Shown here piece by piece: positions 9,199-62,248 of a stretch of 64,000 nt of DNA. Position numbers and translations under genes: made by a program. Each line of letters begins with the position of its first letter. Positions within the stretch are counted from its first letter, which is position 1. This stretch comes from a virus. Under the pieces are notes generated by a model. The model was not told the origin of the DNA and made no database searches. It saw only the letters and a program-made list of their open reading frames with translations. The stretch covers positions 6,156 through 70,155 of the IMG/VR virus record IMGVR_UViG_3300030012_001430, one strand, 5' to 3'.

Positions 9199-9777
9199 TC
9201 ATATTAATCCCAACCTCGTTAGCAAGGCATTTGCCTCTTGTTCATGTTCAAAGGACTTGTTTAGGTAGTGGTCTCTCGGCCACCACTCCGGTTCTTCTCT
9301 CTTAGTCCAAGCAGCGAATCGCCACTTGTCATCGAGATAGTATTGACGATACTTCTCGATTGTCGTCATCTCATCAAATCCATCTGCTTTCCTACACTCC
9401 ATGTGAGGAGAGATAGCAATAGCGAATGGCGTAAGTCCAACATCAGGAAGAAGACTCTCTGCTTCATCCATCTGTTCTGAATACCTGTTCATCTGAACTT
9501 CGACTTGATGAATGCGACCATACCTGTGAGTATACTCCCTGCATAGTGCATAGGTATGCTCACGCAACCACTGGAAGTTCTGTCTTGTCTCTCTCGCCCA
9601 AATAGTAGATGGGTGATTCAACATCACAGGCTTCCAACCTGCTTCCAAACCAAGATGGTCTAGAATAGTAAACAGCATCTGCAAACTCTCAGTTGGCATC
9701 TTGACTACATGCTTGTCCAGCATCATCTTTGCACTCGTTGTTGGGCTTTCGTCTAAAGTAAATATATTCATTTTCAT
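9199..9777 (-). CDS. pyrimidine-dimer DNA glycosylase/T4 endonuclease V-like family protein
   Basis: MNIFTLD...DKHVVKMPTESLQML...NHPSTIW...NFQWL...EYTHRYGRIH signature. Confidence 0.8.
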   Translation of the reverse strand: MKMNIFTLDESPTTSAKMMLDKHVVKMPTESLQMLFTILDHLGLEAGWKPVMLNHPSTIWARETRQNFQWLREHTYALCREYTHRYGRIHQVEVQMNRYSEQMDEAESLLPDVGLTPFAIAISPHMECRKADGFDEMTTIEKYRQYYLDDKWRFAAWTKREEPEWWPRDHYLNKSFEHEQEANALLTRLGLI

Positions 9778-30098: not shown

Positions 30099-30199
30099 GC
30101 GAACTCCTTGACATTGTTAAGAAGTGGAAAGAAGAAACAGAAAAGCGTAATGCAGAGACAGATGAAAGAATTAGGAAGTATTTGGAGGGCAAGAAATGA
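30095..30199 (+). CDS. 34 aa microprotein
   Basis: TTG overlaps the portal stop and its TGA overlaps the next ATG. Confidence 0.45.
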   Translation: MSELLDIVKKWKEETEKRNAETDERIRKYLEGKK

Positions 30200-31164
30200 C
30201 TCTTTGGTTTGAGGAATTGAAGAAAGAGAAAGACGCTTGCTACCGCAAGGTCAGAAGCAGATACAAGAAGTGGCCTTCTGCCTATGCTTCAGGTGCATTA
30301 GTACAATGCAGAAAAGTAGGTGCTGCTAATTGGGGTAACTCAGTTAAGAAAGCAGAATCGAAATACACACCTGAGAACCTATCAGATGAAAAGAGAAGAC
30401 TGTTCGAGTCAGAACCCTCTTTCGATGTAGATTTTCCTGACTATGAGCATCCTGAGAATGAGAAAGAACTTCCAAAGGTTCTAGCCATAATGAAGAAAAA
30501 AGAAATTGACGAGGATGAGATAGAAGACCTAGACCAAAACAACAACGAGATGATGTTGAAGATTGTTGGTGAGAGTAAAGAGGATAGAGAAGATTTGATT
30601 GAGGATATTGATATTCACACAATCAAACTCAAGGTGAAATATGGAAGACCAAGACCTTACGAGATATCCGATAAGATAGAATCTACAACAGATACGGATG
30701 ATAGTCCATCTTTTCCAAGTGGTCATGCGATAGAAGCATACGCCTTAGCCAAGATTCTAGGTAAGGAGTATCCCGACAAGCAAGAGGAGTTGGATAAGAT
30801 GGCTGCTAAGATATCATTGTCTAGAGTTCAGATGGGCAACCATTACCCAAGTGACATCGAAGTAGGAAAGAAGGCTGGCACACTAATTGGTGAGACATAT
30901 CTAGATGGTGACATGAAGAAATCATGGGAAGAGATGCTAGTCAAGGATTGGGTTAGTTGTGCATCATGTGAAGATGACAAACCCGGAACAGAGCCTTGTG
31001 GAAGAAAGGATGCATCCAAGGGAACAAAGAGAAGATGCAGACCAACCTGCTCTGCTTGTGAAGATTACAAGAGAAGAGGCGGGAAACCGAAGAAAAGAAA
31101 GGCAGGTACGTTTAGCAGAGAAGAAGACAAGGGACTTCGTGGTTGGTTTGAAAGGAGGGGTTAG
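30196..31164 (+). CDS. PAP2/vanadium-haloperoxidase-family phosphatase domain flanked by basic Cys-rich modules
   Basis: K-x6-RP (KVKYGRPRP), PSGH and SR-x5-H-x3-D (SRVQMGNHYPSD) all present. Confidence 0.85.
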   Translation: MTLWFEELKKEKDACYRKVRSRYKKWPSAYASGALVQCRKVGAANWGNSVKKAESKYTPENLSDEKRRLFESEPSFDVDFPDYEHPENEKELPKVLAIMKKKEIDEDEIEDLDQNNNEMMLKIVGESKEDREDLIEDIDIHTIKLKVKYGRPRPYEISDKIESTTDTDDSPSFPSGHAIEAYALAKILGKEYPDKQEELDKMAAKISLSRVQMGNHYPSDIEVGKKAGTLIGETYLDGDMKKSWEEMLVKDWVSCASCEDDKPGTEPCGRKDASKGTKRRCRPTCSACEDYKRRGGKPKKRKAGTFSREEDKGLRGWFERRG

Positions 31165-34823: not shown

Positions 34824-37388
34824 ATGACAACATCAGGCGTATCCTTTGAGAAGGAAACTAAGGCTCTATCAAAAAGAGTTCTAGATTTCTTTGAGAGGGT
34901 GCGTTATGCATATCTATCTGCAAAGGAGAATCCGAAGGAATACGGTAAGAAGTGGAAGTCAACTGTGAAGTCTATTCGTGAGGAATATGATGGCTTAGGA
35001 GAGTTCGCCTCAGAACTGAAAGACAGTATCACAGAGAAGGAACTCTTCGATGACAAGATATTCGATGCTGAGAGCCTTCTTGCTAGAAGAGTCTATGAAG
35101 ATGTAAAGAGAATGAGATTCGAGTCGAAGGGAGCATCCGACCCATTCTCTGAGCAACTAGGAGACAAGGTTCTAGAGGTTCTTCTAGAAGACAAGGCAAC
35201 ATTTGCAGCATTCATCCATTATGCATTGCGAAGCCATTCAAACCCAATACCAAAGAAGGCATGGCAAGAGAATGGCCTAAAGCCCGATGAGATAACTCAA
35301 GGATACATGGGTCTAGACTTAGAAGACAAAGACATCCCCCTATACATAATAGAGCATTATGGTGACGACAAGGACTCTAGAAGAGTAAAGGGTAAGTTCA
35401 AGGAAGCAAGAGAGTTACTAGAGAAGGTATATGATGAGAGTTACTCAGAGGAAAAGTGGGACTCTCTAGTAGAGGTTGACATCGCAAAGTCAGAAGAGGA
35501 GAAAGAAGACATTGATTTCATAATACCGAACAAACCAATGTATCGAATATTTGAACTCGATGATATGAAGGACATCAAGGGATTGAGCGGTGAGTATGTT
35601 GTTCAAGAGAAGTATGACGGAATGAGAATACAGATTCACAAGATGGGAGATAACATCAAGATATACTCATACAACGAGAAGGATATCACTGATAAGTGTC
35701 CTGAAGTAGTCGAGAAGATGGGTAAGAAAGGGATAGGAGATTGCATACTGGATGGAGAACTACTTCTCTTTCAAGGAGATGAGGCATTACATAGAGCAAG
35801 TGTGATTACTCATGTGTTCAAGAAGAAGATACCCGATACTAAACTAAGGGCGCATGTGTTTGATGTGATGAAACACGAAGGAAAGGACTTGATGGATGAG
35901 CCTCTAAGAGAGAGAATCAACATAATGTTCTATCAATACTCACAGCATTCTTCTGAAGAACTTGCTTTCCCCTCAAAGAAAGATACTAGAATCGCTGACT
36001 CCATGAAGGAAGTCGGGGAGTATGCAGAGAAGATAATGGAGATGCCAACCTCAGAAGGAGTTGTAATCAAGGACATAGAATCAACTTACTACATGGGTAG
36101 GAAGAAGAACCCGAAGTGGATTAAGTGGAAGAAGTTCGTTGACCTAGATGTGATAGTTCTAGAAGACAAGAAAACGAAGAGTGGCCTACATTCCTATACA
36201 ATGGGTATTGGTCCTCTCACTGCTGAACAGACTAGGGAAATGAAAACAATGGAACTTGATGACAAGAACTACCTTCCTGTTGGTAAGGCATTGAATACCA
36301 AAGTCGAGGTTGATGTTGGAAGCATCATTCGTGTAAAGGTGGATGAAGTCACCAAGAAAGGAAAGGGATTCAGTCTCTATTCTGCTAAAGTGATAGAGTT
36401 ACCTGAAGTGGATGAGTCTGACAAACTAGAGACTTTAGAACAACTAGCGACTAAGACCAAGAAAGCATTAGTCCCTAAGCATCCTTTCGTAAAGCCATCT
36501 GATTTGGCTAATCCATTGACTGTGATAGCAGAGTTGCAGCAAGAGAAGAGAGACAAAAAGAGAATCAAGAAGTATATTGTGACTGATTATGTTCATGGAG
36601 AAGCAGAGATAATCTGCAAGCATGAGTTAGATGGTTTCACTGTTTATGGTTTCGATGGAGACCAATTGATGCAGAAGAATGCATTGCATAACATGGATGT
36701 ATGGAAGGAACAACTAGAGAAACTAATGAAGTCTAGGAAATCGAAACTAAGAGTAGCAATTAGGAAGATAATAGAGGACAATCAGAAAGCAATGGAGTTT
36801 GATGAACTAGAGGAGAAACTCAGAGTAACAGAAGAGGATGCCTATGATGAAATCTTTGAGGGCAAGCCAAAGAATCTACTATCTTGGATGAAGAATCAAG
36901 ATGCATTCGTGTTCCTTTCACCTAACAGGTTTGATGTATCTCCTGAGAATATAGAGAAGGACGAAGATGATGAACTAGCAGGAGAGTTTGAAGTTCGCCA
37001 ACGTGAAGACGGTAACTTGGATTTTGTCATCCAAACAGACAAAGACAGAATGGCTTGGTTGATAGACTTAGAAAAGCCTGAAGACATCTTTGACTTATTC
37101 GGTAAGTCCGGCAAGTATCCAGCGAAGGTATCTGAGAAGATAGACAGCACGAAGATAATAGACAGTGGAGAACTTATCTTCGGCGTTCAACGAGATGGGT
37201 ATCATGAATATAGAATGGAAGGAGACAAGTTCCAAACTAGAATACACTTCAGGGTTGTTCCTCTAGATGAGAAAAAGTCTTGGATTGTATTCACAGGCAA
37301 GAAACAAGACATGTTGGACGATAAATCTGATGAGGGAATCATCGATATCACAAAGGACAAGTATAGCAATTTAGAACTACCTGAATAA
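34824..37388 (+). CDS. lig: ATP-dependent DNA ligase, multidomain
   Basis: motif I QEKYDGMR, III ILDGEL, IIIa FDVM, IV EGVVIK, V WIKWKK, then an OB fold; extra N- and C-terminal domains. Confidence 0.9.
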   Translation: MTTSGVSFEKETKALSKRVLDFFERVRYAYLSAKENPKEYGKKWKSTVKSIREEYDGLGEFASELKDSITEKELFDDKIFDAESLLARRVYEDVKRMRFESKGASDPFSEQLGDKVLEVLLEDKATFAAFIHYALRSHSNPIPKKAWQENGLKPDEITQGYMGLDLEDKDIPLYIIEHYGDDKDSRRVKGKFKEARELLEKVYDESYSEEKWDSLVEVDIAKSEEEKEDIDFIIPNKPMYRIFELDDMKDIKGLSGEYVVQEKYDGMRIQIHKMGDNIKIYSYNEKDITDKCPEVVEKMGKKGIGDCILDGELLLFQGDEALHRASVITHVFKKKIPDTKLRAHVFDVMKHEGKDLMDEPLRERINIMFYQYSQHSSEELAFPSKKDTRIADSMKEVGEYAEKIMEMPTSEGVVIKDIESTYYMGRKKNPKWIKWKKFVDLDVIVLEDKKTKSGLHSYTMGIGPLTAEQTREMKTMELDDKNYLPVGKALNTKVEVDVGSIIRVKVDEVTKKGKGFSLYSAKVIELPEVDESDKLETLEQLATKTKKALVPKHPFVKPSDLANPLTVIAELQQEKRDKKRIKKYIVTDYVHGEAEIICKHELDGFTVYGFDGDQLMQKNALHNMDVWKEQLEKLMKSRKSKLRVAIRKIIEDNQKAMEFDELEEKLRVTEEDAYDEIFEGKPKNLLSWMKNQDAFVFLSPNRFDVSPENIEKDEDDELAGEFEVRQREDGNLDFVIQTDKDRMAWLIDLEKPEDIFDLFGKSGKYPAKVSEKIDSTKIIDSGELIFGVQRDGYHEYRMEGDKFQTRIHFRVVPLDEKKSWIVFTGKKQDMLDDKSDEGIIDITKDKYSNLELPE

Positions 37389-38660: not shown

Positions 38661-40022
38661 ATGAGTGGATATATTAACACAGTAAAAGACCTAGAAGCAG
38701 CCACCTATGGCTACGCTGGCGCACAGGGCAATGCTCTGCTAAAGGCTGCTGGTGTTGTTGGTGGTTTCGGAACGCCCCACGATGCAGCAAGCAACCCGTT
38801 TTCGGCTGCTGCTGGATTGGGAGACCTATACAACGTTCTTTACGGACAGAAAGTATGGTCAATGCTAAACCAAGAGGTTAACCCTCTTGCTATGCTCGCA
38901 AAGAGGCCATACACATCTAGTGGATGGAGAGTTCTAAAGAGCAGAGCAATGGGTGGCTCAGGTTCTGCATTCGGAATCGGAAGCGGTGCTGAAGGTTCAG
39001 ACACACCAAGACCCGACAAAATCGGTGGTGTTGGTGAGAACGCAACTCTAGGAAGTGGAAATGATATCCCACCAATTGCACCTCAGTATGAGAAACTATA
39101 CGTCAGTCCAAAGACTGTGGCTCATCTATTCGAGTTCTCTGAACTTGGTATGGAACTTGCTGCAATCGATGACGGTGTTGGTGACATTCGTGCAATCGTT
39201 CGTGAGGACATGGGTAAACTACACGCAGAGACTCAGAGCAAGATGCTAGTCATGCCTCTTGAGAGATATGATGACGGTACTGCAACTCTCATTGAGAGAA
39301 ACTACACATCTCTCATGAAGATTGTTTCGTCTGCTGCTGAGATTGCTGCTATGTATAACGCAAACCTAGTGGATGCTAGTGCTAACAACAACAACAACAG
39401 TGCAGCCGCAGCAGACCTAGTACGCCTATTCGGAACTTCCCGAACTGTCAACGTATCAAACAACGCTGCAACTGGCGATGCTTCCTTCTTGGATGCAGAG
39501 GTTGACTTCGGTGCAGGATATGGTAGTGGCGATGCTAGAGTTCTAACACTAACCATGCTTAATGACATGATTAGGAGAATCAGGCAGAACGGCGGAAACC
39601 CGAAAGTTATCTTGACTGGCTATGACACTGTTCAGCACCTTGCTGACTTGCTACAAAGCCAAGAGAGATTCATGGACAGAAAGGAAATCGTACCTACCCA
39701 CAATGGAGTTCGTGGTGTTAAGGGTGCAGAGGTTGGATTCAGAGTTGCAACATACTACGACATCCCAATCATCCCAACCAAGGACATGCCATCTACTGGC
39801 GGTAACTCAACCAACGAACTGAGTGACATACTCATCCTAGACACAGACCATCTGTGGCTATCGGTGATGAAGCCTACTCAGTATTTCGAGGATGGTATCA
39901 CTAGTGGAAACCCATTCGGTGTTGGCAAACTTGGAAACCAAGGAATGTATCGAACTATGGGAGAGACCGGATGTTCGTTCTTCAAGGGACAAGGTAAGAT
40001 AACCAACATTAAGAGTGCTTGA
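38661..40022 (+). CDS. major capsid protein (HK97 fold)
   Basis: position after protease/scaffold; 453 aa; YYDIPII and TMGET C-terminal features. Confidence 0.85.
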   Translation: MSGYINTVKDLEAATYGYAGAQGNALLKAAGVVGGFGTPHDAASNPFSAAAGLGDLYNVLYGQKVWSMLNQEVNPLAMLAKRPYTSSGWRVLKSRAMGGSGSAFGIGSGAEGSDTPRPDKIGGVGENATLGSGNDIPPIAPQYEKLYVSPKTVAHLFEFSELGMELAAIDDGVGDIRAIVREDMGKLHAETQSKMLVMPLERYDDGTATLIERNYTSLMKIVSSAAEIAAMYNANLVDASANNNNNSAAAADLVRLFGTSRTVNVSNNAATGDASFLDAEVDFGAGYGSGDARVLTLTMLNDMIRRIRQNGGNPKVILTGYDTVQHLADLLQSQERFMDRKEIVPTHNGVRGVKGAEVGFRVATYYDIPIIPTKDMPSTGGNSTNELSDILILDTDHLWLSVMKPTQYFEDGITSGNPFGVGKLGNQGMYRTMGETGCSFFKGQGKITNIKSA

Positions 40023-40033
40023 GGTGATTAGAG

Positions 40034-40369
40034 TTGACACACGCTGTTACTCTAGTTGCTGACCATAAGGGCGTAACTGCCCCAAAGGTCGCAGGTGACG
40101 AGTATGTGGTTGATGCAATAGTCAACATAACTGCATACGTTCAGGGTGGAATAACCCTGACTGCTGCTGAGTTGGGTCTGTCTTCCCTACACTGCGTTCT
40201 AGTAACAGGTGTAGAGGAGATTGGACACAGTGCAAGAGCCGTCATCAGTGCCGCAGGAGCATACGAGTCAGGAACAAGTGCCAAACTTATCCTGTCTACT
40301 GGCTCTGCACAACAATCAGGTACAGGAGATGAAGGCATGGTAAGAGTCCGTGTCTATGGTAATCTCTGA
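40034..40369 (+). CDS. capsid decoration/minor head protein
   Basis: small beta-rich protein right after the capsid gene. Confidence 0.65.
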   Translation: MTHAVTLVADHKGVTAPKVAGDEYVVDAIVNITAYVQGGITLTAAELGLSSLHCVLVTGVEEIGHSARAVISAAGAYESGTSAKLILSTGSAQQSGTGDEGMVRVRVYGNL

Positions 40370-40437: not shown

Positions 40438-40458
40438 CACAATAAAAAGGTGAATAAA

Positions 40459-40962
40459 ATGGCAAAAGTAAAGTTAGTAAGACACAGACCAAGTGGACCT
40501 CTTCTACTACGAAGAGGCGGTCAAACATATGCATTAACAGCACAAGAGGAAACTGTTGTTCCACTAGGAATTGCAGTTGGAATGCTAGGAGATTCAGGAC
40601 TCCTAGTAGAATTAGATGCTTCTGATTCCTCAGACATCCTGACATTGAATGAATACTTACTCAATCTACTCAAGAGAGAGTTTGGCTTAGAGGGAGATGC
40701 AAAGGCAGTTAGGGCTGCTTTGTTCCCTTCAAAAAAGAAGTCATTCATTCCTAACATAATCAAAGAGACTCCCGTAGAGGAGACTCCCGTAGAAGAACCA
40801 GCAGTAGAGGAAGAACCTGAAGAACCTGAAGAGGTTGTAGAGGAAACTGTTGACTATTCACAATACACAGTGAAACAACTCAAGGGGATGCTTGAGGAGA
40901 AGGGACTATCAACTGATGGAAAGAAAGCAGACTTGGTAGAGAGGATGTCGGGGGCTGAATAA
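40459..40962 (+). CDS. protein with C-terminal SAP domain
   Basis: YTVKQLKGMLEEKGLSTDGKKADLVERM after an acidic E/P linker. Confidence 0.8.
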   Translation: MAKVKLVRHRPSGPLLLRRGGQTYALTAQEETVVPLGIAVGMLGDSGLLVELDASDSSDILTLNEYLLNLLKREFGLEGDAKAVRAALFPSKKKSFIPNIIKETPVEETPVEEPAVEEEPEEPEEVVEETVDYSQYTVKQLKGMLEEKGLSTDGKKADLVERMSGAE

Positions 40963-41258
40963 TGGCATCCCCAACATGCAATTCCACAGGCGTACTTTCT
41001 ACTAGCACAGTAGCAGTAAAGCATCATGCTAAGATAATGAGCGTTCATGCCACATCAACGGCAAACGCTGTAATGACTGTCAAGATTTGGGACAGTGACA
41101 ATTCAACCACAACAGGCAAGAAGGAGGTTGCCCGATTAGTTCTACATGCAGGAGGAACTGCTCAAACCATCGAGCAAGACCTACATGGAGTTCTTGTAGC
41201 CAATGGAATCTTCGTTCAGATTACTGGCACAGGAACTGTTTCTGTAAACTTTGCTTGA
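40962..41258 (+). CDS. small beta-rich virion protein
   Basis: T/S/V-rich; coupled start. Confidence 0.65.
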   Translation: MASPTCNSTGVLSTSTVAVKHHAKIMSVHATSTANAVMTVKIWDSDNSTTTGKKEVARLVLHAGGTAQTIEQDLHGVLVANGIFVQITGTGTVSVNFA

Positions 41259-41268
41259 GGTGATTATC

Positions 41269-41694
41269 ATGCCAAGTATAGATACAGATACTAGACTAAT
41301 AATGACTGTTCTATTCGTTGGAGCAGTTAGCGGTGTCAATGTTTACTTCTTCTCGCAATACGGTTCTACCTTTGTGAGTGCCTATGGTCCTTATCCAGTG
41401 GCTATGATATTCGGGGTTCTAACCGTAGGAGGGATAGTGATACTGAAAGCACTATTCGATTTGATGATTAACGATTACATAGAGGACTTCTTACTTCAGC
41501 GACAAATCAATGCTTATTGGAACAGAAAGGCAAGAGATGAGGAAAACCGAAAGAGGGTAAGAGAATCCTTCAGAGGCTTCCAGCAGCAGTTTGGCACGAC
41601 AGCATACGGAGACCCAAATCTACCAGTGATGCAACCAACCGCTCAAGAAGTGCAAACGGTCAGTCCAACTTTCCTAACAGGTTTCAATGAGTGA
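41269..41694 (+). CDS. membrane protein (2 predicted TM segments plus charged helix)
   Basis: LIMTVLFVGAVSGVNVYFF and VAMIFGVLTVGGIVIL. Confidence 0.75.
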   Translation: MPSIDTDTRLIMTVLFVGAVSGVNVYFFSQYGSTFVSAYGPYPVAMIFGVLTVGGIVILKALFDLMINDYIEDFLLQRQINAYWNRKARDEENRKRVRESFRGFQQQFGTTAYGDPNLPVMQPTAQEVQTVSPTFLTGFNE

Positions 41695-41699
41695 TTTAG

Positions 41700-41921
41700 A
41701 TGGTAAGTGAAATCCTATTTGGGATGGATGAATCTACTCTAGCCTATGACCTTCAAAGGGCGCATTCTGCTGATGTATGGTTTCTTAGGGCTAGATTCTA
41801 CTTGTGGGGAGGAATCGCCTCAGTAACTAGTTTCTTTGTAGGACATGCTATTTCTCTTTGGGGAATCAACCTTTACGAAGTTGGTTGGCACATACTAAGT
41901 TCCCTTTGGGGCGGTCATTGA
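41700..41921 (+). CDS. small membrane protein
   Basis: hydrophobic FYLWGGIASVTSFFVGHAISLWGI. Confidence 0.7.
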   Translation: MVSEILFGMDESTLAYDLQRAHSADVWFLRARFYLWGGIASVTSFFVGHAISLWGINLYEVGWHILSSLWGGH

Positions 41922-41975
41922 CTTCTCAACCATTTTAATGCTCTCCGACATCCGACTCACTGAAGAGGTGATAGC

Positions 41976-42647
41976 GTGTCGGTGATGGCAGGTTTTGCAA
42001 TACTAATTGTAGAGGCTATGAATAAGTTGTATAACAGACTACATGCTATCAATTTCGGCATATATGGAGCAAGCAAGGCAGGAAAGACAACTCTACATCG
42101 ACAATTAATGACTAGAGGGGAAGTCCCTGATATACAGAAAAGAACTGTTGGCAGACATAGGGCTACTCGTAAATTCGTGAAACTAGACGGTGATGCACAT
42201 ACTGTAAAGACTGCCGATATTGGTGGTCAAACTGTATATTGGGAAGAATGGGTTAGAGACATGAGAGGAAGACATGTGAAGTATGTCATATTCCTGTTTG
42301 ATGATAGACATCTAGACAAGCACTATGATATAGAGCAACAACTGTCTTGGACATTTCTAGTTGATACTATATGCAATTCATATTGGACTATTGGAGGTCG
42401 AAAGAAGAAAAAGCAAGACCATGACTACCCTCTAGCAGTCGGTCTTTGGGCGAACAAGTATGACCTATGGAAAGACAAGTATCCACATAATGGAAAAATC
42501 GAAGACCATCCTATATTCGCTTCATTCAAACCCGGACTTCAGAAGTTAAACGAGACAGGCATACCATGTCACAAATACATAGTTAGTGCTAAATCTGATT
42601 CTGAAATGGTATATCGTGGAGTATTAACAATGATAAAAGACTACTGA
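41976..42647 (+). CDS. Ras-superfamily small GTPase, Arf/Sar-like
   Basis: G1 GASKAGKT, G2 RTVG, G3 DIGGQ, G4 ANKYD, G5 SAK; hydrophobic N-terminal helix. Confidence 0.9.
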   Translation: MSVMAGFAILIVEAMNKLYNRLHAINFGIYGASKAGKTTLHRQLMTRGEVPDIQKRTVGRHRATRKFVKLDGDAHTVKTADIGGQTVYWEEWVRDMRGRHVKYVIFLFDDRHLDKHYDIEQQLSWTFLVDTICNSYWTIGGRKKKKQDHDYPLAVGLWANKYDLWKDKYPHNGKIEDHPIFASFKPGLQKLNETGIPCHKYIVSAKSDSEMVYRGVLTMIKDY

Positions 42648-42706
42648 TACGTCAGACTACTCAGGTCTGACCGCAAGGAAGACCTAGATAGGTAGGAGAA
42701 AATAAA

Positions 42707-43387
42707 ATGTCAATGCAATTTAACCCCCCTAGTTTGATAGGAGCAACGAATGCAACAGTGAACGCTGGCCCTAATCCATTCATGGATAGATTGACTGCCG
42801 CAAGAGCAGCAGGGCCAATAATGCCTTATGAGTATAAGGCACTAAAACCAAAGAAACAGTTGAAAGAAATAGTAAAGGTATTGAAACCGGAAAAGAAAAC
42901 TTTTCTCAAGATACCTTACTCCTTCAAGTACAACTACAAAGATAGATGTGTCATATGTGGAACACAGAAATTTTGGACGGCAGACGATACTAGAAGACCT
43001 CCACTTCCACTGCACAAGGTTCGCAAGGGATATCCAATGAGAGGAACATACTGCGAGAAACATGCAGCAATACACATGCAGTATGAAATGCTAGAGCAAC
43101 AGATACTAGCCGAGGAACATGGTCTTTCCTTCAGTGCATACATCCCTTCTGCTAAGAGTTTGAATCCAGTTAACCTAGTAAAATCAGGACCAATAACTCA
43201 ATTAAAACAAGAGGACATAAACTCTCTAACATCTCTAGGATGGTCAATACAACCTCCTGTCACAGAGAACTCATCTAAGGAAGAACAACTCTATGCCTTG
43301 ATGATAGAGAACACGGCCATGTCTGCTAAGATTAAATCTTTATTGACCGAAGGCGTTAAGATTACCACACAGGAGGAGAGTAACTGA
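42707..43387 (+). CDS. Zn-binding hypothetical protein
   Basis: CVIC...YCEKH. Confidence 0.75.
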   Translation: MSMQFNPPSLIGATNATVNAGPNPFMDRLTAARAAGPIMPYEYKALKPKKQLKEIVKVLKPEKKTFLKIPYSFKYNYKDRCVICGTQKFWTADDTRRPPLPLHKVRKGYPMRGTYCEKHAAIHMQYEMLEQQILAEEHGLSFSAYIPSAKSLNPVNLVKSGPITQLKQEDINSLTSLGWSIQPPVTENSSKEEQLYALMIENTAMSAKIKSLLTEGVKITTQEESN

Positions 43388-44094
43388 TGGGTGTCTTCGG
43401 AACAAGCAACTCTGCCCTATCTTCACAGATAAACACAATGGGCCAAGCCAATTTTAAAATGACTAACAACCTCTTGACTTTGCAAGAGAATCATGTGGAA
43501 GAGTTCTTCCAATACCACGGAGAACAATTCCTAAGTGCATTTGAAAAGATGATGGAAGATGTGATGGCTAGAGTTGTCAGTCAGATGCTAGTCAAAATGA
43601 AATTCGTATCTAACACCAATGGAGATTTGGAGATACATCCTGACTCTCTAAGTGAGTTCACAAGTATCACACAAGAAAATATTGATTTGGATATTGTCAA
43701 CCTTCTTGCTAGTGCTGTTAACTCAGAAGTTATCATGCAGAGAAGAATGGCAAAGCAGCAGTATCTAGAATCACAGGGCTTTGCTTCTCCTGCACAAGAT
43801 ATGCCGCAACAAATGGGCGGTATGCCTCAAGGTGGAAACCCTCAAGGCATGAATCCTACAAACATACAAGGCGCACCTGCTATGGGTGGGATGAATCAGC
43901 AAATGATGCAACAGCAAATGGCTATGAACAATGGAAGTGGATATCCAATACCTCCGAGTGGGTATGACCAATTCAATAATCCATATTGGATTGACCCTGC
44001 TACTGGTCAACCATCATACACACCGCCTCAAAGCGGTCTTGGTCTAGCCTCTGCTCTAAGCAAAGGTGTTGCATGGGCAAAGTGGTTGGCATAG
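43387..44094 (+). CDS. protein with Q/M/G/P low-complexity region and amphipathic C-terminus
   Basis: MPQQMGGMPQGG...; ends GLGLASALSKGVAWAKWLA. Confidence 0.75.
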   Translation: MGVFGTSNSALSSQINTMGQANFKMTNNLLTLQENHVEEFFQYHGEQFLSAFEKMMEDVMARVVSQMLVKMKFVSNTNGDLEIHPDSLSEFTSITQENIDLDIVNLLASAVNSEVIMQRRMAKQQYLESQGFASPAQDMPQQMGGMPQGGNPQGMNPTNIQGAPAMGGMNQQMMQQQMAMNNGSGYPIPPSGYDQFNNPYWIDPATGQPSYTPPQSGLGLASALSKGVAWAKWLA

Positions 44095-44108: not shown

Positions 44109-45482
44109 ATGAGTTTGACTATCGACAGCAGTAATGATAGCGACCTAGAAGATACATTTACTCTAACCGAAGCAGATGTCAAGGCTGCTACTGTTACCCC
44201 CACTACTGATGCTTCTGTTATTCTAAGGACATTAGTTCTAAAGATGCTTCAGAGTCAAATGAAAGACAGTAGGAGATTCACACAGCAAACAGTCAGGAGA
44301 GACTTTAGAATATTGATGTCTCTTACAAAAGAGGATTTCAAAACAGAGGAAGAGTTTGCACAGTATAAAAAATACATGGGGGAACTTGTGGAGAAAGCAC
44401 TATCCCTTCCTGTGGCTAAAACTGTTGATGAATTAGAGGATAACCTACCCGGAAAGAAAGGCTCTGCAATGTTTGAGTTGTTTGGTGGAGGTTCAATGAC
44501 TAGAGATGATTTCAAATCGGATGAGGCATATGAGGACTACAAGCAAAGCATAGAGAACAAACCTTCTCCTGTTGCTACTAATATAAGAGAGAAGGACGTT
44601 ACATTTCAGCAATTACTACTCCCTGCTTACTTGGGTCAGACATACGAAGGTAGTTCTAAAACAGGCAAACCATCTAAGGTAATGGAGACTGTTGATAAAG
44701 ATAAGAGTCTCTTCGATGAAAGTAAGATTGGGCAATACCTAGATAAAAACGATAGTGATTCATCAACGAAAGGCAAGATATTCTACACATGGGATTTGGA
44801 GGCATATCTGAAAGCACTATTGAAGGATGATGGGTTTGATGATTTCGACAGTGACCATTTGAGGTTAGTTCCTAACAAAGAGAAAGAAACCGCTACGCTA
44901 AATTCCACTAGAATGAATACCCTATTAGGCATAAACCCCCCTAAGATGGATATTACTATGAAATTCGATGGGGAAAGAAACAAAGTCATACCTTCTAAAT
45001 ACACACTTGGCGATAGAGAGTACGATGCCAAGGTAAAGACTGAAAGAGAGAAAGCCGCAAAGTATCTGCTTTCCTTCATAAAACTCACCAAAGAACAAGA
45101 AGATAAAATCGCTAAGGAAATCTTAGAGAGGTCAAACTTCATGAAAGCAAGAAGAACTAGAGACAGGGATAAGAAGATGAGAGGTGCAGGGCGTGAGCCA
45201 ACTGTTTCCGAACTCACTAGAAACTATCTAGACTTAGATGTGGGAAAGATGACCTTTGTTATATCTGTGAGTGGATATCAATCCATTCTAAAGGGAACTA
45301 TATCCGCAGAGGAGAAACAAGATGTTCTTGACTATGGTTTGATACTAGACAAGACAGGGGAATTAAGATTAGCAGAAGAAGGTGCTTTCGCTATCACTGA
45401 AAGAGATAAGGTGGAGGGCATATCTGATATAGTCAGGGGGGTTAAGACCTTCATGGCTAAGACCCGGAAATTCAGGAGTTGA
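44109..45482 (+). CDS. hypothetical protein
   Basis: 457 aa ORF. Confidence 0.75.
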   Translation: MSLTIDSSNDSDLEDTFTLTEADVKAATVTPTTDASVILRTLVLKMLQSQMKDSRRFTQQTVRRDFRILMSLTKEDFKTEEEFAQYKKYMGELVEKALSLPVAKTVDELEDNLPGKKGSAMFELFGGGSMTRDDFKSDEAYEDYKQSIENKPSPVATNIREKDVTFQQLLLPAYLGQTYEGSSKTGKPSKVMETVDKDKSLFDESKIGQYLDKNDSDSSTKGKIFYTWDLEAYLKALLKDDGFDDFDSDHLRLVPNKEKETATLNSTRMNTLLGINPPKMDITMKFDGERNKVIPSKYTLGDREYDAKVKTEREKAAKYLLSFIKLTKEQEDKIAKEILERSNFMKARRTRDRDKKMRGAGREPTVSELTRNYLDLDVGKMTFVISVSGYQSILKGTISAEEKQDVLDYGLILDKTGELRLAEEGAFAITERDKVEGISDIVRGVKTFMAKTRKFRS

Positions 45483-52276: not shown

Positions 52277-54844
52277 ATGGCAACAACAGCACATGTAGGA
52301 GATACAAGAGCGTTGATATTTCCTGTTATGTGTGATGGACATCTGAAGATAGAGTATGATGACTACAACACTAACAACTCCAAAGATGAGTTGTGGGACT
52401 ATGGTGGGCCGTTCTCAATAGAAGCGATAGTAACCCCTTACGATGTGAATGGAGTGGGACACAGGATATCAGGAAAAGGAAGACTCGATAGTACCAAGAC
52501 CCCTCCTAGTCCAAACCTATCACTAGACGACCAAGCAGATGCTACATCCAACTATGAGAGTGTCAGTTACTTCGGAGCAGGTAGAGATACTCATAAGATG
52601 ATGATATTCTGCAATGACTATTTGAAATTCTATCTACAAAACACAACCTCATCCAATTTCAATCAACCAGCAGAATACAAGATAGTTGTCGAACTCACAG
52701 ATTCTATCGGCACTCCGATAAGCCACACAGTTAGTAGTGAACCAGTATTCGTATCTAAGAAATCATTGACTGGATACTATGACCCTGATGGTTTTTACAG
52801 TGGCATAACAACAGACAAGACGAAAATAACCAGTAGTGCGACTGGCTCTCTTCCCACTGCGACAACTTCGATAACAGGAAACTTGGCTAGTTTCACAAAC
52901 ACTGCTGAAGTACAGGGTACAGCCACATTCACTGTGAATGCTGTTCCGAGTTCTTCCCATCTAGACGTTGCTGCTTCGAGTGGTACTAATGCAACAGCGA
53001 AGATAACATTCTCAACAGGATGGAGTGCTACTCCAATAACACCGGGTACGACTGCTAGTACCAACAATGCCATCATTCTCAGAAACAGACAAACAGGTTC
53101 AGGTGCTAGTTCCAATAAAACATACAGATTCTTTATGACAGATGCTTCTTCTTCAAGTGCTTGGCCCAGTGAAATGCAGGGAAGTGGTGCTAGAATACAC
53201 ACATTTACTGATTTAGGGAGCAGTACAGGTGGGCCAATGTTGCAAGCACAATTGAATGACCTTGGCTATGGTTCAACTAATACTCAAGAGGATGTCTTCG
53301 TTCCTGAGACTGGTAGGGTTGTGATTGGTAGTAGCACCGTCATGGGTGCGAATTTTAGATTGATGTTATTCAAGGCTATCAATGACGTAAATGGTAGTGG
53401 GAGCAATCCAAGTTCGGGGTTGGATATAACGGCAATAACATCAAACACATCAGGAGTAGCAGGAGTGATTACCTTAACACAGGATGCCGTTGGAACAGCA
53501 GGAAACCACAGCACGACTCCTAATACTGGTCCTGTTATTGGCTCTAGCATTGCAAACAGTGGGAAACTAACTGCCACTGTCTTCGGGGATAACTCCTCTG
53601 ACTCAACCATTGTTGTCGGTACGAACGCTACGAGTGCTAGTAATGTGAACTACTACATGACAGTCAGATTGCGAAACTCAAATGGTGGTTTAACGGCTGC
53701 TAAATACTTCAAGTTCTTTAGTGGTACTTTCGCACATGGAGCATTGGATAATAACAGCACTACAAGCGTTAGTCCTGTTCATAAGGTTCGGATAGGAGGC
53801 AGTACGGGTGTCACTGCTACTTATTTAGCAGCAGCAATCAACAATGCATTCACAGGAACTGGCTTTGCGGGAAGTCAGGCAGAAGCCGTTGGAAGCGTAG
53901 TCACAGTAACTTCTCCAAGCGGAACAGTCCAATCAAATCAAACGTTAGCAAGAGTAAGTGGTTATTCTAGTATTATCACAGTAAGTAGCAGTCAGTTTTC
54001 CAACTACTCTGCTGCAATTACACCAACCGCATTCATCACTCTAGAGGATAGTGCTGGTCTAGTCAAGAAGTACAAACCAACTAAGGGAGAGAACAATGAG
54101 ACTAATGGTTCTACTGCAACAGAAGGAAGCAATGATGTTGTCTTCTTTACAAATGTAACTGGTACTAACAACAACCTGCAAACGACTGCTCAGAATCTAC
54201 GAGAAGCAATAAATGGAACTACGGGACACAATGGCTCTCTCACAGTGACTAGAAATGGTGCTGTGCTAACAATAGTAGCCGCATCAGCAGGAGACCAAGC
54301 AATTAGCAATACAGGAATAACTTCGGGATTGTCAATAGGAGCATTCACCACCAATGTCAATGACATCAATGTAGGGTCAGGTGAAGCAGATGAAATAGGT
54401 GCTGGTAATGATATATACAACAATGTCGGGACACTCATAGGAACTGTTTCTTCAGTAAACGGAAACACGATTACACTCGCATCTGCTCCTGCTACACCAG
54501 TCACAGGAACGATATACAGAGACCAACAGAAGGAGGCTTTGTATCTAGAGCAAGTAAGTAAAGTAGGAATGTCTTTTGACAGAAATACAATCACCTTGTA
54601 TCTAAATAATCGACCAGTGAAGAGAGCGAAGGTAAACATTGGTAAGTTCAGATTAGATACCAGTCCGGGTGATTGTTTCATTGGGCAGGATGCAAGTCTT
54701 TCTGCTACTGCGAGAAAGGCAACACAATTCATGGGTGAACTCTATGAGATTGCATTTCACAAGTCTGCTACTCCTTGCCCTACCATTACAACTCTAACTC
54801 CTAATTACAGTGATACTCTGTTCTACTACTCCTTTGGTGATTGA
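52277..54844 (+). CDS. tail protein with split LamG-like domain and T/S/G-rich insert
   Basis: FSIEAIVTP near the N-terminus; LYLNN...FIGQ...FMGELYEIAF at the C-terminus. Confidence 0.7.
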   Translation: MATTAHVGDTRALIFPVMCDGHLKIEYDDYNTNNSKDELWDYGGPFSIEAIVTPYDVNGVGHRISGKGRLDSTKTPPSPNLSLDDQADATSNYESVSYFGAGRDTHKMMIFCNDYLKFYLQNTTSSNFNQPAEYKIVVELTDSIGTPISHTVSSEPVFVSKKSLTGYYDPDGFYSGITTDKTKITSSATGSLPTATTSITGNLASFTNTAEVQGTATFTVNAVPSSSHLDVAASSGTNATAKITFSTGWSATPITPGTTASTNNAIILRNRQTGSGASSNKTYRFFMTDASSSSAWPSEMQGSGARIHTFTDLGSSTGGPMLQAQLNDLGYGSTNTQEDVFVPETGRVVIGSSTVMGANFRLMLFKAINDVNGSGSNPSSGLDITAITSNTSGVAGVITLTQDAVGTAGNHSTTPNTGPVIGSSIANSGKLTATVFGDNSSDSTIVVGTNATSASNVNYYMTVRLRNSNGGLTAAKYFKFFSGTFAHGALDNNSTTSVSPVHKVRIGGSTGVTATYLAAAINNAFTGTGFAGSQAEAVGSVVTVTSPSGTVQSNQTLARVSGYSSIITVSSSQFSNYSAAITPTAFITLEDSAGLVKKYKPTKGENNETNGSTATEGSNDVVFFTNVTGTNNNLQTTAQNLREAINGTTGHNGSLTVTRNGAVLTIVAASAGDQAISNTGITSGLSIGAFTTNVNDINVGSGEADEIGAGNDIYNNVGTLIGTVSSVNGNTITLASAPATPVTGTIYRDQQKEALYLEQVSKVGMSFDRNTITLYLNNRPVKRAKVNIGKFRLDTSPGDCFIGQDASLSATARKATQFMGELYEIAFHKSATPCPTITTLTPNYSDTLFYYSFGD

Positions 54845-54845
54845 G

Positions 54846-57800
54846 ATGGCAAAGACAAATGGAACTATTCTCTATCCCCTGAAATCAGGAGTCAATGAGT
54901 CTAATGCCACTGAAGCCTATGCTAGTATGACTACGGAGTTTTCTGATGGTTTTGCATTCAAGGATGTATCAGTCAATCCCGTATTGAAAGCGACATATGT
55001 GGAGTCTGAGACTACTGGAACTGGAACTGCCACATCCGATGTAGTTCCATCTGTGATATTCACTGAGATTAGAAAGGGGTCTCATGGTGGCTCTATATCA
55101 AATGACAAGCCTGACCAAATAGGAAACAGGCTTCTTCCTAGCAATAAGACCATCGCCAACTATGCTATAACCAAGGAAACAACACCTCCTTTCAAAGTAA
55201 AGGCATATGATACTAGTATCAGTACGGGTGAGACAAATAGAAAGTTCGTATATGCAGATACCTCATTGGGTGATTCTGTTATTGACCATCCTGCTACTGA
55301 TGTTGTGGCATTAGACATAGAGAGATATGATTATTTCATCATGTTGAATCCTGAGATATATGATTCATCAACACAGACGGATACCGCAAGACCGCATTTT
55401 GCTAAGATAACTAGAATATCTACATTCGATGAGTTTGGAGATGGCTTGGAGTTCAGCCCTAAGTATCCTACTTCTATACCAAAGGGAACTAACTTTGAGA
55501 TATTCAAAGGACCAGCAAAGACAGATACCGATGTCATGGCTGTGAGTTATGGGCTTCGTGGGGATAATCAGGCTTCGACAGACAACTATGATGTGCTAAA
55601 CAGAGTCGATAGACCAACTTTCTACTTCTACAATGACAGGTTGGAGCAGGATGACCAGTTGGACTACATGGAGAAATACACCGTCACTAGATTGAGATGG
55701 TATGACTATAATATTGCATTAGGTACAGGTGACAGTGGGAACGCTGTTGCTTTCACAAGCAGCAGTGCTGCTTATTCAGCGTTTGAGGAGGGCAGTTCAT
55801 CGAAGAAACTGTTTGTGAACACAGGCAGTTACCCACAATTTATGAATAGAGTATTCCAAGGTATGTCGCTGTTCAATGACTCGGATGATAGTTTTGTTGG
55901 TAACGTGAAAACAATCAACACCAGTGATAATTCTATTGAGTTGGATTTCGCTAGACAAGCATCAACTGCATGGAGAAGTCAGTCATCTTCTTTTGTTTTA
56001 ACCTACGGAAAGGGAATACAGAATATAGTATTCAGAACGGAATCAAAGTTGAAAGGAACAATAACCAATATTGGAAGGAGAAAACTAGATGCAACTCTTG
56101 TCGATAATCTAAGGACAACTGATGACGGTGATAGTAATTTCAATCCTATTCTATGGCATAAAGCGTTTCCAAACATGAAGAGACATACGGGGGATAGCAC
56201 ATCAACAACATCAGCGACTCTTGATGGTAATCGAACTGGTCCTTCAAGATACATAACATCCGACCCAAGACCTCGTAGGAATGACATCATTCCATTCACT
56301 ACGGATATAATTGTCAATAACCCTCAGAATAAAATGAGTAAGATATTCAAGACTAAATTACTAAACAACTCAGGAATGATGTCAGAAAAAATACGAGAGG
56401 GTCAGAAACTCAAGGCTATGAAAACAACATTCAGCGACAAGATGACTTTCAAGAAACTGCCATTCAAAGCGTCTAAGGTAGATGGTGCAAATGAGATTCG
56501 ATTTACAGAAATGTTAGATACACATGACTATGCATTATCCACTAAACTCGCTGCTAATTCTATAATCAAGGTAGATGGCTACTACTATGCGATAGATGCA
56601 GTGCAGAGTAAATCTTCAGGTACGCAAGATGTCACAGTGAAAGCGAATAAGACTCTCAAGGCAACAACATTCACTGTGACTCCAACTGTGCATGATTTTG
56701 ATAATGAGGATGTTGAGATTGCTGCTTGGACAGGAGTTCTAAACACAGAGGACTTTGATTCCGATACTCAAGTAGTCTATGCAGATGGAAACAGACTAAC
56801 TGTATCAGGAACAACCATTCCTAAAGAAGACTCCAAGTTCTATGATACTAAGGTGGTATTCTCTAATCTCAGCACTCATCAGAACCATGTGGATTACATA
56901 GACAAGGACATGGAGTATGTGAAGTTCCAAGATGCTAGTAGGAAGTTCTATCAGAATACAAACATACAGAGATTCTACTATTACACAGACACATACAGTT
57001 TGCAGGAAGAGGTCTTTGACGGCACAGTTGAATTGAGTGAGACCTCTGCTGAGAATGGCTTGTCAACATTGGTGATTGAAGGAAGAGATACCAACGCTGC
57101 TTTGCTTAACACTCTGATAGACAAGAACCTGTCTTTCTCTGAGGACATGGTGTATAGCACACTGAATCCGATTATACCAGCATTGAATGAGGCAACAATG
57201 GATGTAAGCAATGTTAGTGGTAAAGTAATTACTCATGCTGCAATAAGCAACTGGAATACCACCGCTTTAGCAAGAACCCTGTTGTTTACTAGAAGCACCA
57301 CTGAAGCAGACAACATGATTTTCATTGGAGAGGTAGCATCAGTAACAGGAAACAACCAATCTACAACTCTCACACATGAGCCGTTAGTCACACTATCCAC
57401 TACTGCGAATACTGATATCTACTATTATGACCCTCACTCTGAAGCAACATACCTCTCAGGCAAGAAAGCAATTGGCAGTAATCCATTGTTAACTAACTCT
57501 GCTGCTGACTTCTCAAGAGTCAGCGACAAGGGTTTGGTCTTCTCTGACTCGTTCTCATTCGATAGAACAGGCACTAGAACCAAATTGGAATCAACATCCA
57601 ACACTGCTTCATTTGACAATGACAGAACACTAGGATATGATATCGCTAGTCCAATCAGCATTAATTCATTGAACACTAGCACGTTGAATGCAGACTCGGC
57701 TTTTGCAATACAGTTATCAAAAGAAACGGGAGTATCAACAACCAAGATTAACAAGATGACATATGCTTCTGAGATGTTTGATATTGTAGAGACTATCTCA

Positions 57801-61888: not shown

Positions 61889-62248
61889 ATGACAGTAGTA
61901 AACGAAGGGGCAAGCAGAATAGCGACATTGATAGCAACAGATTTCAATATCATTGCGATAGGCGATGGCGGAGACAGCACATCAGCAAGCCAAACAGGGT
62001 TGAATAACTTCGTCTTTCAACATCCTTCAACTCAAACACCAACAGTGGTGGGTTCTACATTGATTTACAATGTTAGTTTCACAGGGTCACAGATACCCCC
62101 TTCAGGAGTTTCGGAATTAGGCATTTTCAAATCGGGTACTACAAACGGAAACGGCACGTTATTGAGCCGAGTCACCTTCACGAATACTGGTGTTGTAGCA
62201 AGTGGAGACACAGTTTCGTTTACAGTTAGAGTAGAGGTGGGTAATTAA
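61889..62248 (+). CDS. small baseplate/tail-fibre attachment protein
   Basis: IAIGDG...SELGIF...LLSRVTF pattern. Confidence 0.65.
   Translation: MTVVNEGASRIATLIATDFNIIAIGDGGDSTSASQTGLNNFVFQHPSTQTPTVVGSTLIYNVSFTGSQIPPSGVSELGIFKSGTTNGNGTLLSRVTFTNTGVVASGDTVSFTVRVEVGN

Follow-up and report, generated by a model that had tools for sequence, protein, structure and literature searches.

A magrovirus-type tailed virus of archaea encodes what is very probably a real, conserved and membrane-associated GTPase cassette, and the reading favoured here is that of a GTP-switched membrane machine that acts late in infection and most likely serves egress, with vesiculation of the kind driven by the archaeal GTPase ArvA as the main rival. 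That the job of the cassette is egress or lysis is a more tentative proposal, which we rate somewhat below an even chance. The cassette occupies positions 41269-44094 on the plus strand of the window, by which we mean the whole stretch of 64,000 nucleotides of viral DNA that was analysed, and it consists of five tightly packed open reading frames, g1 to g5, of which g3 encodes the GTPase. The first-pass annotation of this DNA had assigned it to an archaeal virus, and this is borne out. Magroviruses are tailed, and their presumed hosts are the Marine Group II archaea, which are uncultured. They are of the HK97 type and show no sign of a membrane. An earlier study reports that they are abundant worldwide (PMC5434244).

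The genes of the cassette are separated by gaps of 5-59 nt, the start of g5 overlaps the stop of g4, and all five are co-directional with the structural genes. Shine-Dalgarno-like sites are found upstream of g1, of the GTPase gene and of g4, among them a GAGGTGA 4 nt 5' of the g1 ATG and an AGGAG 5' of the g4 ATG. The same order and strand are kept in all 80 of 80 close viral loci, with misses only at contig ends; g2 and g4 are present in 80/80 loci each, g1 in 77 (three misses at locus ends) and g5 in 75 (five misses at locus ends). The ratio of non-synonymous to synonymous substitution (dN/dS) is 0.02-0.26 overall and thus well below 1, being lowest for the GTPase (0.02-0.09) and amounting to 0.06-0.12 for g1 and 0.02-0.26 for g2; the cassette is under strong purifying selection. 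The kept gene order, the low dN/dS and the Shine-Dalgarno-like sites together indicate more than a chance arrangement. Beside the cassette lies a hypervariable gene, g457, which is found in 20 of the 80 close loci.

The GTPase (g3, positions 41976-42647, +, 223 aa) starts with a GTG and is Arf/Sar/SR-beta-like and very divergent. It was described at the outset as a complete small GTPase with motifs G1 to G5, and all five motifs are indeed invariant in an alignment of 16 sequences: G1 as GxYGAxxxGKTT (residues 28-39), G2 as T57, G3 as DxGG (81-84), followed by the equally invariant W89 and W92, G4 as NKxD (160-163) and G5 as SAK (204-206). Over 47 sequences, G31, G36, K37, D81, G84, N160 and K161 remain invariant, while T38, T39, T57 and D163 are found in at least 90%; within the clade of the window, D81, G83 and G84 are invariant. 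The five motifs, together with a predicted six-stranded alpha/beta G-domain fold, place the protein in the Ras superfamily (TRAFAC). An AF2 model built on the 16 close sequences had a pLDDT of 62.6, and a run on 47 sequences was used instead. The N-terminal hydrophobic helix noted at first reading is also seen: a helix is predicted at residues 2-22, of which residues 1-12 are almost purely hydrophobic and residues 11-21 amphipathic (muH 0.63), and the N-terminal segment is hydrophobic in 47/47 aligned relatives. Its switch I loop is long, a beta-hairpin is inserted at residues 136-145, and residues ~141-147 form a polybasic loop. The residue that follows DxGG varies within the family between Q, E, H and A, so that a clock based on fast intrinsic hydrolysis is not assured.

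The GTPase leans towards the Arf/Sar/SR-beta group, which is a lean and not proof. The top match among PDB sequences is the Asgard Arf-related protein GerdArfR1 (8oun_A, E 1.2e-11); Rab33B (7.7e-9) and KRas (about 1e-7) are nearly as good in the same search. In VIA-align, Arf6, SR-beta and Sar1 head the list, rows within 1 Z being tied. Foldseek, however, puts Rab GTPases first, and the G5 motif SAK is of the Ras/Rab type; 'Arf-like' is therefore used here as a leaning only. The profile of the Pfam family Arf (PF00025) gives the window GTPase 16.1 bits, below the threshold of 22.3 bits and less than the scores for Roc (21.4) and MMR_HSR1 (18.6); only two far relatives, P0184 (36.5 bits) and P0155 (27.2 bits), exceed the Arf cut-off of 22.3 bits. 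The only NCBIfam match is to the generic small_GTP domain, with 26 bits below its cut-off of 42.5 bits. The Arf/Sar-type character claimed initially stands as a lean, with the match to GerdArfR1 in its favour, whereas the sub-threshold Pfam score, the SAK motif and the variable residue after DxGG speak against a firm assignment.

A tblastn search of the INPHARED phage records gave no match, P0184 used as query retrieved only 6 metagenomic proteins, none of them named, and cluster look-ups for 10 far relatives returned no taxonomy. Of 41 genomes of the class to which the archaeal metagenome-assembled genome G005 belongs, 16 gave a match with the profile A7 at E <= 0.001. The match in G005 lies on a virus-like contig of its own (1.8e-65); the others (1.3e-4 to 8.8e-4, in frames of 195-451 aa) were considered as kin of the cassette GTPase and are read as generic P-loop GTPases. 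No close cellular homologue of the viral GTPase was thus found in the 41 genomes of this class.

The GTPase gene is preceded by two genes, both of which had been taken to encode membrane proteins. For g1 (41269-41694, +, 141 aa when read from the ATG, or 147 aa from a TTG at 41251) this stands: the integral membrane protein has strongly hydrophobic helices at residues 10-28 (Kyte-Doolittle 2.01) and 44-62 (2.33), and an alignment of 13 sequences shows two further conserved parts, a strongly charged helix after these two (YWxRKARxEENRKRVRES) and SPTFLT at the C-terminus. The small hydrophobic protein g2 (41700-41921, +, 73 aa) reaches a hydropathy maximum of 1.39 in a stretch at about residues 34-56, which is below the threshold of 1.6 set for transmembrane helices, and it is therefore only likely to be a membrane protein; its counterparts at the same position in other lineages exceed this threshold. 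The alignment of g2 displays a near-invariant N-terminal part of 33 residues, a variable hydrophobic stretch after R30 and R32 and a Trp-rich end, and by these features g2 is probably a single-pass membrane protein with its N-terminus inside. Neither g1 nor g2 matches a Pfam or PHROG family at E < 0.04, including holin, endolysin and spanin families, and g1, g2, g4 and g5 have no match in NCBIfam.

Downstream of the GTPase gene lies g4 (42707-43387, +, 226 aa), which encodes a basic Cys/His protein with a net charge of +9. C81, C84, C116 and H123 are invariant and H119 is near-invariant in the alignment, giving the pattern CxxC-x31-CxxHxxxH, and a KKQLKEI...PEKK stretch and several Arg residues are conserved as well. 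The first-pass annotation had called g4 a Zn-binding protein; the Cys/His pattern holds, and metal binding is deduced from it. Judged by its sequence, g4 is probably a metal-binding partner or regulator of the GTPase. An ArfGAP zinc finger has the form CxxCx16-17CxxC with an Arg finger; g4 was considered as such a finger and rejected on its different spacing and the lack of a match to Pfam ArfGap. More generally, g4 has no match in Pfam (E <= 0.1), PHROG, NCBIfam or PDB sequences, where the profile search gave 0 hits. A predicted complex of the GTPase and g4 scored 0.00 in two runs, in which the controls were not folded and the fold of the partner was uncertain, so that the score speaks neither for nor against contact.

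The last gene, g5 (43387-44094, +, 235 aa), encodes an acidic, Q/M/G-rich protein with amphipathic ends. Both the Q/M/G/P low-complexity region and the amphipathic C-terminus that had been pointed out before are present, the former being variable and the latter ending in an invariant Trp/Lys-containing ...AWAKWLA. The alignment further contains an invariant MGxFGTSN start, a conserved helical core (NNLLTLQENHVExFFQYHGE...) and a YWIDPxTGQ..Y.PP segment, and MG[LIVF]FG starts recur in other lineages. We took the MGLFG-type start as a hint at PspA/ESCRT-III; however, 0/20 members of the g5 family match Pfam PspA_IM30 or Snf7 at E <= 1. No family match was obtained for g5 in Pfam, PHROG or NCBIfam, and the PDB profile search gave four uninformative hits, the best of which (E 0.044) is a designed Kelch repeat. 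The ESM Atlas contains no model of g4 or of g5, and searches of it gave top scores at chance level for both (0.79 and 0.81, respectively).

Homologous cassettes are found in three further virus lineages, each time at another site of the genome. In clade 2, the cassette lies upstream of terminase and the layout is the same in 69-73 of 80 loci, 73 being the number of loci in which the GTPase frame could be placed. In hhalign comparisons between the window and clade 2, the GTPase matches with a probability of 100%, g4 matches the gene after the clade-2 GTPase (96.5%, E 8.9e-10) and g5 the second gene after it (91.5%, E 8.5e-7); g1 and g2 reach 4.6% and 1.7% and are thus not detectably homologous, so that only position, size and hydrophobicity are common to the two lineages. 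In a further lineage (L170), the cassette layout is found beside a thermosome-like gene, and a fourth lineage has the same layout on metagenome contigs. It had been noticed that the block interrupts the head-to-neck gene order of the window, and related viruses agree with this: they keep the run from the major capsid protein (MCP) through the homologues of g358 and g177 to the tube without the cassette, which is located ~23 kb away, before terminase. In the genome G001, for example, the cassette is found at ~15.8 kb, TerL at 24.2 kb and MCP at 39.1 kb, and the head-to-tail run there lacks the cassette. Since it occupies other sites in other lineages, the cassette is a portable unit. Taken together, it is a self-contained, portable, late-gene block of magroviruses, the late timing being read from gene position.

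Two metatranscriptome runs of one sample contain parts of the stretch, with contigs that cover the MCP gene and its neighbours. In one RNA library, an identical contig of 163 nt lies within g4 (43029-43191), and a further 217 nt of cover fall within g457; contigs of these two runs leave most of the cassette uncovered. Such contigs show no expression levels, and DNA may be present in RNA libraries; they neither show nor deny transcription of the cassette.

How might such a cassette work? We propose that the five proteins come together on the cytoplasmic side of the host membrane, where g1 and g2 would form the membrane-embedded part, g1 being holin-like in its size, its two transmembrane helices and its charged cytoplasmic tail. 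The GTPase would dock via its N-terminal helix and act as a GTP/GDP switch or timer, g4 would regulate this switch or read it out, and g5 might attach to the membrane by the helices at its ends. As infection ends, the machine would remodel or breach the host membrane and so release virions from a host that is expected to lack peptidoglycan. In line with the earlier statement that no endolysin is recognisable in the window, no lysozyme, amidase or other lytic-enzyme family was found among the 40 window frames, a subset of all frames, that were scanned against Pfam. By its helices at 10-28 and 44-62, its conserved Arg/Lys/Glu-rich tail and its co-direction with the structural genes, g1 resembles holins, a resemblance only; none of the five proteins has detectable homology to lysis proteins in Pfam or PHROGs. 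To our knowledge, no phage lysis system includes a GTPase. The fully specified version, in which the cassette is the egress machine of tailed archaeal viruses and an Arf-like GTPase times or triggers holin-like proteins with g4 as regulator and g5 as scaffold, is more doubtful than egress or lysis as such.

A rather unlikely alternative, yet the strongest of those considered, is that the GTPase bends the host membrane without lysis, giving rise to vesicles or an assembly platform that might serve as decoys, as a membrane-bound factory or for release without lysis. A study on Haloferax volcanii reports that the small GTPase ArvA drives the formation of extracellular vesicles, with ArvB and ArvC, a Zn-ribbon protein and proposed GAP, as its partners, and that ArvA has an N-terminal amphipathic helix and Arf as its top HMM match (PMC10927574). 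By analogy, an Arf-like GTPase with an N-terminal helix and a Cys/His protein encoded directly downstream would be common to both systems. OapB (ArvB) was not found in the 41 genomes of the class of G005, which carries a relative of the cassette GTPase, so that the virus could supply a function missing in that lineage; the placement of G005 in the host lineage, however, is itself presumptive. Moreover, g4 and g5 have no match in Pfam, the OapB family included, and are therefore neither DUF2072 (ArvC) nor DUF2073, PF09846 is absent from the virus record (0/1; the controls H. volcanii and Methanosarcina acetivorans matched), and magroviruses, being of the HK97 type, give no hint of a membrane.

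The proposed membrane machine for egress also has to be weighed against three readings that we consider improbable. In some phages, among them P22 and T7, genes for membrane-active ejection proteins lie near the site between head and tail genes that the cassette takes up in the window lineage, and the membrane proteins of the cassette, perhaps with the GTPase, could be packaged as pilot proteins that form a conduit for DNA at entry. The three other lineages, however, have the cassette outside the head-to-tail run, a GTP switch requires cytoplasmic GTP, and no cassette protein matched a PHROG structural family; such a role is very unlikely. Equally little credence is given to a device for superinfection exclusion, defence or counter-defence at the membrane: small membrane proteins with a regulator do form a portable cassette here, next to the hypervariable g457, but exclusion and defence genes usually turn over, whereas the cassette shows extreme conservation of its GTPase and a set of five genes that does not change between lineages. 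Finally, a GTP-dependent factor that keeps the assembly of capsids or tails at the membrane without remodelling it would suit a cassette that shares the direction of the morphogenetic genes in every lineage seen and adjoins a chaperonin-like gene in one of them, but it is hardly probable given the changing position relative to structural genes, and we know of no precedent in tailed viruses.

Within the literature searched, no description of the cassette was found, although supplementary gene tables of magrovirus papers and of PMC10927574 may list the GTPase; GTPase terms are absent from the available text of PMC5434244, PMC11706807 and PMC10160649. A 2024 review describes the lysis machinery that tailed archaeal viruses use as 'completely uncharacterized' (PMC10791045). 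The GTPase cassette is an undescribed candidate for how these viruses act on, or leave via, the host membrane, and it gives the study of their egress five defined proteins, centred on a virus-specific Arf-like switch, all of which can be expressed and assayed without the uncultured host. If the egress reading is true, it would be a GTP-gated lysis system without bacteriophage counterpart, in some of the most abundant archaeal viruses of the surface ocean. With the cassette, the range of Arf-like, membrane-associated GTPases further takes in viruses whose archaeal hosts are not Asgard, which bears on the debate over the prokaryotic roots of membrane trafficking.

Among known systems, the Arf family is nearest to the viral GTPase, with the Asgard ArfR protein GerdArfR1 (PDB 8OUN/8OUM, bioRxiv 10.1101/2024.02.28.582541), Arf6, Arl8, Arl3, Sar1 and SR-beta. 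The viral protein differs from these by being 40-50 residues longer, by its long switch I loop, hairpin insert and polybasic loop, and by a residue after DxGG that is not a fixed Gln. Its G5 is likewise not of the Arf type. The GTPase of Mimivirus, a giant virus of eukaryotes, can be recognised as a Rab (PDB 5XC5) and shows 13-17% identity to the GTPase of the cassette. It has, as far as we know, no comparable gene cassette. The viral cassette resembles the Arv system in its archaeal context, in an Arf-like GTPase whose N-terminal helix is a putative membrane anchor and in a co-operonic, Cys-rich, putatively metal-binding partner, and the known output of Arv is membrane deformation; in contrast to Arv, the viral cassette adds two membrane proteins and has no member of the OapB family, and ArvA is likened to the GTPase by description only. 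Unlike the holin-based cassettes of tailed phages, the viral cassette matches no holin, endolysin or spanin family and serves in a host expected to lack peptidoglycan, and no holin system known to us contains a GTPase. Holin-based cassettes likewise consist of small membrane proteins with charged cytoplasmic tails, encoded in a late operon at variable positions, and the S-R-Rz lysis cassette of phage lambda lies upstream of the terminase genes, as does the cassette of clade 2.

The cassette comprises five plus-strand genes at 41269-44094: g1 (41269-41694, 141 amino acids), g2 (41700-41921, 73 amino acids), the GTPase gene (41976-42647, 223 amino acids, GTG start codon), g4 (42707-43387, 226 amino acids) and g5 (43387-44094, 235 amino acids). 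The intergenic gaps are 5 to 59 nt long, the start of g5 overlaps the stop codon of g4, and Shine-Dalgarno-like motifs (GGTGA or AGGAG) are found a few bases upstream of g1, the GTG codon of the GTPase gene and g4. The first-pass annotation had treated these genes as one module, and this is borne out by synteny: across 80 IMG/VR loci whose GTPase is 73-98% identical to that of the window, order and strand are the same, g2, the GTPase and g4 are each detected by tblastn in 80/80 loci, g1 in 77 and g5 in 75, and all misses fall at locus ends. For sequence pairs with unsaturated dS, dN/dS is 0.02-0.26 for the five genes and 0.023-0.086 for the GTPase; all five are under strong purifying selection. 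Within the cassette, RNA libraries contribute a single short, identical metatranscriptome contig, from one sample. Directly downstream, preceded by a GGTGG site, lies the hypervariable gene g457 (44109-45482, 457 amino acids), which tblastn detects in just 20 of the 80 close loci (25-97% identity) and which is flanked by conserved sequence on both sides; diversification may be concentrated there.

A similarly arranged cassette is found in a second, distant virus lineage (clade 2), represented by 80 loci whose GTPase is about 30-35% identical to that of the window. Hidden Markov models of the window clade detect the GTPase in all 80 of these loci, g4 weakly in 16 and no other cassette gene. The clade-2 order is a membrane protein of 143-201 amino acids, a membrane protein of 73-99 amino acids, the GTPase, a protein of 292-357 amino acids, a Q/M/G-rich protein of 190-235 amino acids often starting with MGLFG, and a further membrane protein, about 80 amino acids long; the GTPase ORF was placed in 73 loci, of which 69-73 show this layout. 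Profile-profile comparison between the clades gave probabilities of 100% for the GTPase (E 4.5e-40), 96.5% for g4 (E 8.9e-10) and 91.5% for g5 (E 8.5e-7), and non-significant values for g1 (4.6%) and g2 (1.7%). Thus, the GTPase, g4 and g5 are homologous across clades, and g1 and g2 are matched by place, size and hydrophobicity only. In a third lineage, located on a 9.7-kb contig of an archaeal MAG, a thermosome-like gene precedes the same set of five, and metagenome contigs of a fourth lineage encode all six clade-2 components (E 2.5e-70 to 2e-9 by HMM) plus one inserted gene. The inserted gene encodes a soluble protein of 256-260 amino acids and separates the small membrane gene from that of the GTPase (L177:7229-7999 and L186:7217-7999).

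The GTPase was described in the first-pass annotation as a complete, Arf-like small GTPase. Completeness holds, as all five G motifs are invariant in a 16-sequence alignment, in which G1 (28-39), T57, DxGG (81-84), W89, W92, NKxD (160-163) and SAK (204-206) are conserved throughout. The Arf assignment holds in part: the best true PDB match of the family profile is 8oun_A (E 1.2e-11, profile positions 11-123), which, like 8oum_A, is the Asgard Arf-related GTPase GerdArfR1 according to a preprint (bioRxiv 10.1101/2024.02.28.582541), followed by Rab33B (7.7e-9), 8oum_A, Arl8/Arl10C (3e-8), Arl3 (6e-8) and KRas (about 1e-7). However, all Pfam scores are sub-threshold (Roc 21.4 bits, MMR_HSR1 18.6 bits, Arf 16.1 bits against a cut-off of 22.3), and the top Foldseek hits of the model are Rab GTPases in the GTP-bound state (mimivirus Rab, E 7.2e-10). 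The AlphaFold2 model searched reached a pLDDT of 90.8 and a pTM of 0.87 with 47 aligned sequences; with 16 close sequences, the pLDDT was 62.6. The protein is no textbook Arf, because it falls below the Pfam threshold, its G5 is SAK, the residue after DxGG varies, the switch I loop is long, a hairpin is inserted and one loop is polybasic, and because its first 12 residues are more hydrophobic than amphipathic. Of the 494 candidates from a word-indexed search, 349 are relatives; the top 120 share 60-95% identity with the window protein, often stem from Tara or other marine sources and lie on contigs of up to 99 kb, and three carry the JGI name 'GTPase SAR1 family protein'. When 1.84 billion cluster representatives were searched exhaustively with a profile, no more than 81 proteins reached E <= 0.001, and many of these are fragments. 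Full-length distant relatives are 20-35% identical and all keep the hydrophobic N-terminus; two of the farthest pass the Pfam Arf threshold (P0184, 36.5 bits; P0155, 27.2 bits), and P0155 also scores for SRPRB (22.5 bits). In our reading, the window GTPase represents a new family within the small-GTPase superfamily that is carried by viruses and leans towards the Arf/Sar/SR-beta group. One clade-2 copy (L132:6771-7502) has an in-frame stop codon and may be broken or misassembled.

The partner proteins g1, g2, g4 and g5 have no meaningful family match in Pfam, PHROGs or NCBIfam, and g4 and g5 have none among PDB sequences or in the ESM Atlas. g1 possesses two strong transmembrane helices; beyond these, a charged helix and a motif at the C-terminus are conserved. 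In g2, 33 nearly invariant N-terminal residues precede a variable hydrophobic stretch, which in the window copy falls below the transmembrane threshold applied, and a Trp-rich end. The basic protein g4 contains a CxxC...CxxHxxxH motif with invariant C81, C84, C116 and H123, a nearly invariant H119 and several invariant Arg residues. g5 invariably starts with MGxFGTSN and ends in an equally invariant amphipathic Trp/Lys segment; its core is conserved, whereas its Q/M/G/P tract varies.

The virus record (70,155 bp, rated 72% complete) encodes a terminase large subunit, portal, prohead protease, tail-tube protein, class II ribonucleotide reductase and an SU10/HK97-type major capsid protein, which matched 11 of 50,697 annotated phage records, exclusively archaeal tailed viruses (haloviruses and viruses of Methanomassiliicoccales and Methanofastidiosa). 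The capsid gene (38661-40100) is covered by metatranscriptome contigs of one marine sample at a word depth of 50-80, in two co-existing sequence variants. An 854-amino acid ATP-dependent DNA ligase (34824-37388, 2.1e-30) lies between portal and prohead protease, in agreement with the magrovirus report by Philosof et al. (PMC5434244), which describes a ligase embedded in the structural block, a ribonucleotide reductase and halovirus-like capsid genes, all shared with the window virus. No GTPase is mentioned in the main text of that report or in two later magrovirus papers, PMC11706807 and PMC10160649. Further genes encode a PAP2-family enzyme just downstream of the portal gene (30196-31164, 1.5e-12), a 170-amino acid head-block protein ending in a SAP DNA-binding domain (40450-40962, Pfam 2.3e-9), which is unusual for a capsid-proximal gene, and, on the minus strand, a ThiF/E1-like protein (1203-1805, 1.3e-17), a TFIIB-type zinc ribbon protein (2030-2932, 2.8e-6, slightly under the cut-off) and a pyrimidine-dimer DNA glycosylase (9199-9777, 3.4e-8). 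A 2358-amino acid ORF without Pfam match (54810-61886) and the DUF5907-repeat protein downstream of it (62248-63999, extending past the window end) are probably tail or fibre genes.

In G001, the complete 118-kb record of a related virus, the cassette is located at about 15.8 kb, away from TerL (24.2-25.6 kb), the capsid gene (39.1-40.3 kb) and the tube gene (45.5-47.2 kb). Both G001 and a further record, G002, keep a run of capsid gene, small ORFs, homologues of the window ORFs g358 (E about 1e-42) and g177, and tube gene with no cassette within it; the block is therefore a movable unit and, as proposed earlier, interrupts the head-to-tail order in the window lineage. On the host side, a GTPase relative is encoded at only three loci across 185,579 species genomes, one in a 'Methanobacteriota archaeon' MAG and two in a MAG titled Maricaulis, a bacterium. 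The latter are magrovirus-like contigs (L168 and L169, GTPases 70% and 60% identical to that of the window) and most likely reflect a binning artefact or carry-over rather than a host link. Among 41 genomes of the archaeal MAG's class, a close homologue was found only on that MAG's own virus-like contig, and the ArvB family (OapB, PF09846) was found in none.

The cassette, co-directional with the late genes, joins a conserved GTPase with GTP-binding motifs and a hydrophobic N-terminus to membrane proteins and two orphan proteins. The GTPase would serve as a GTP-binding switch whose N-terminus seeks the membrane, and the five proteins may act jointly on the cytoplasmic side of the host membrane. 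Egress is the favoured, if tentative, reading, because g1 resembles a holin, the genes lie in a late-operon setting, a scan of 40 window ORFs revealed no lytic enzyme, in line with the earlier remark that no endolysin is recognisable, and how tailed archaeal viruses leave their hosts is a gap acknowledged in PMC10791045. That the same membrane-associated set drives vesiculation or compartment formation is unlikely. Least probable, and about equally so, are roles of its products as ejection proteins, in exclusion or defence, or as an assembly tether. ArvA, ArvB and ArvC of Haloferax volcanii are the closest working precedent for the cassette. According to PMC10927574, the Arf-like GTPase ArvA has an N-terminal helix and brings about the formation of vesicles, its partners being a SepF-like protein and a Zn-ribbon protein, the latter proposed to be its GAP. 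The viral partner proteins lie outside the ArvB and ArvC families.
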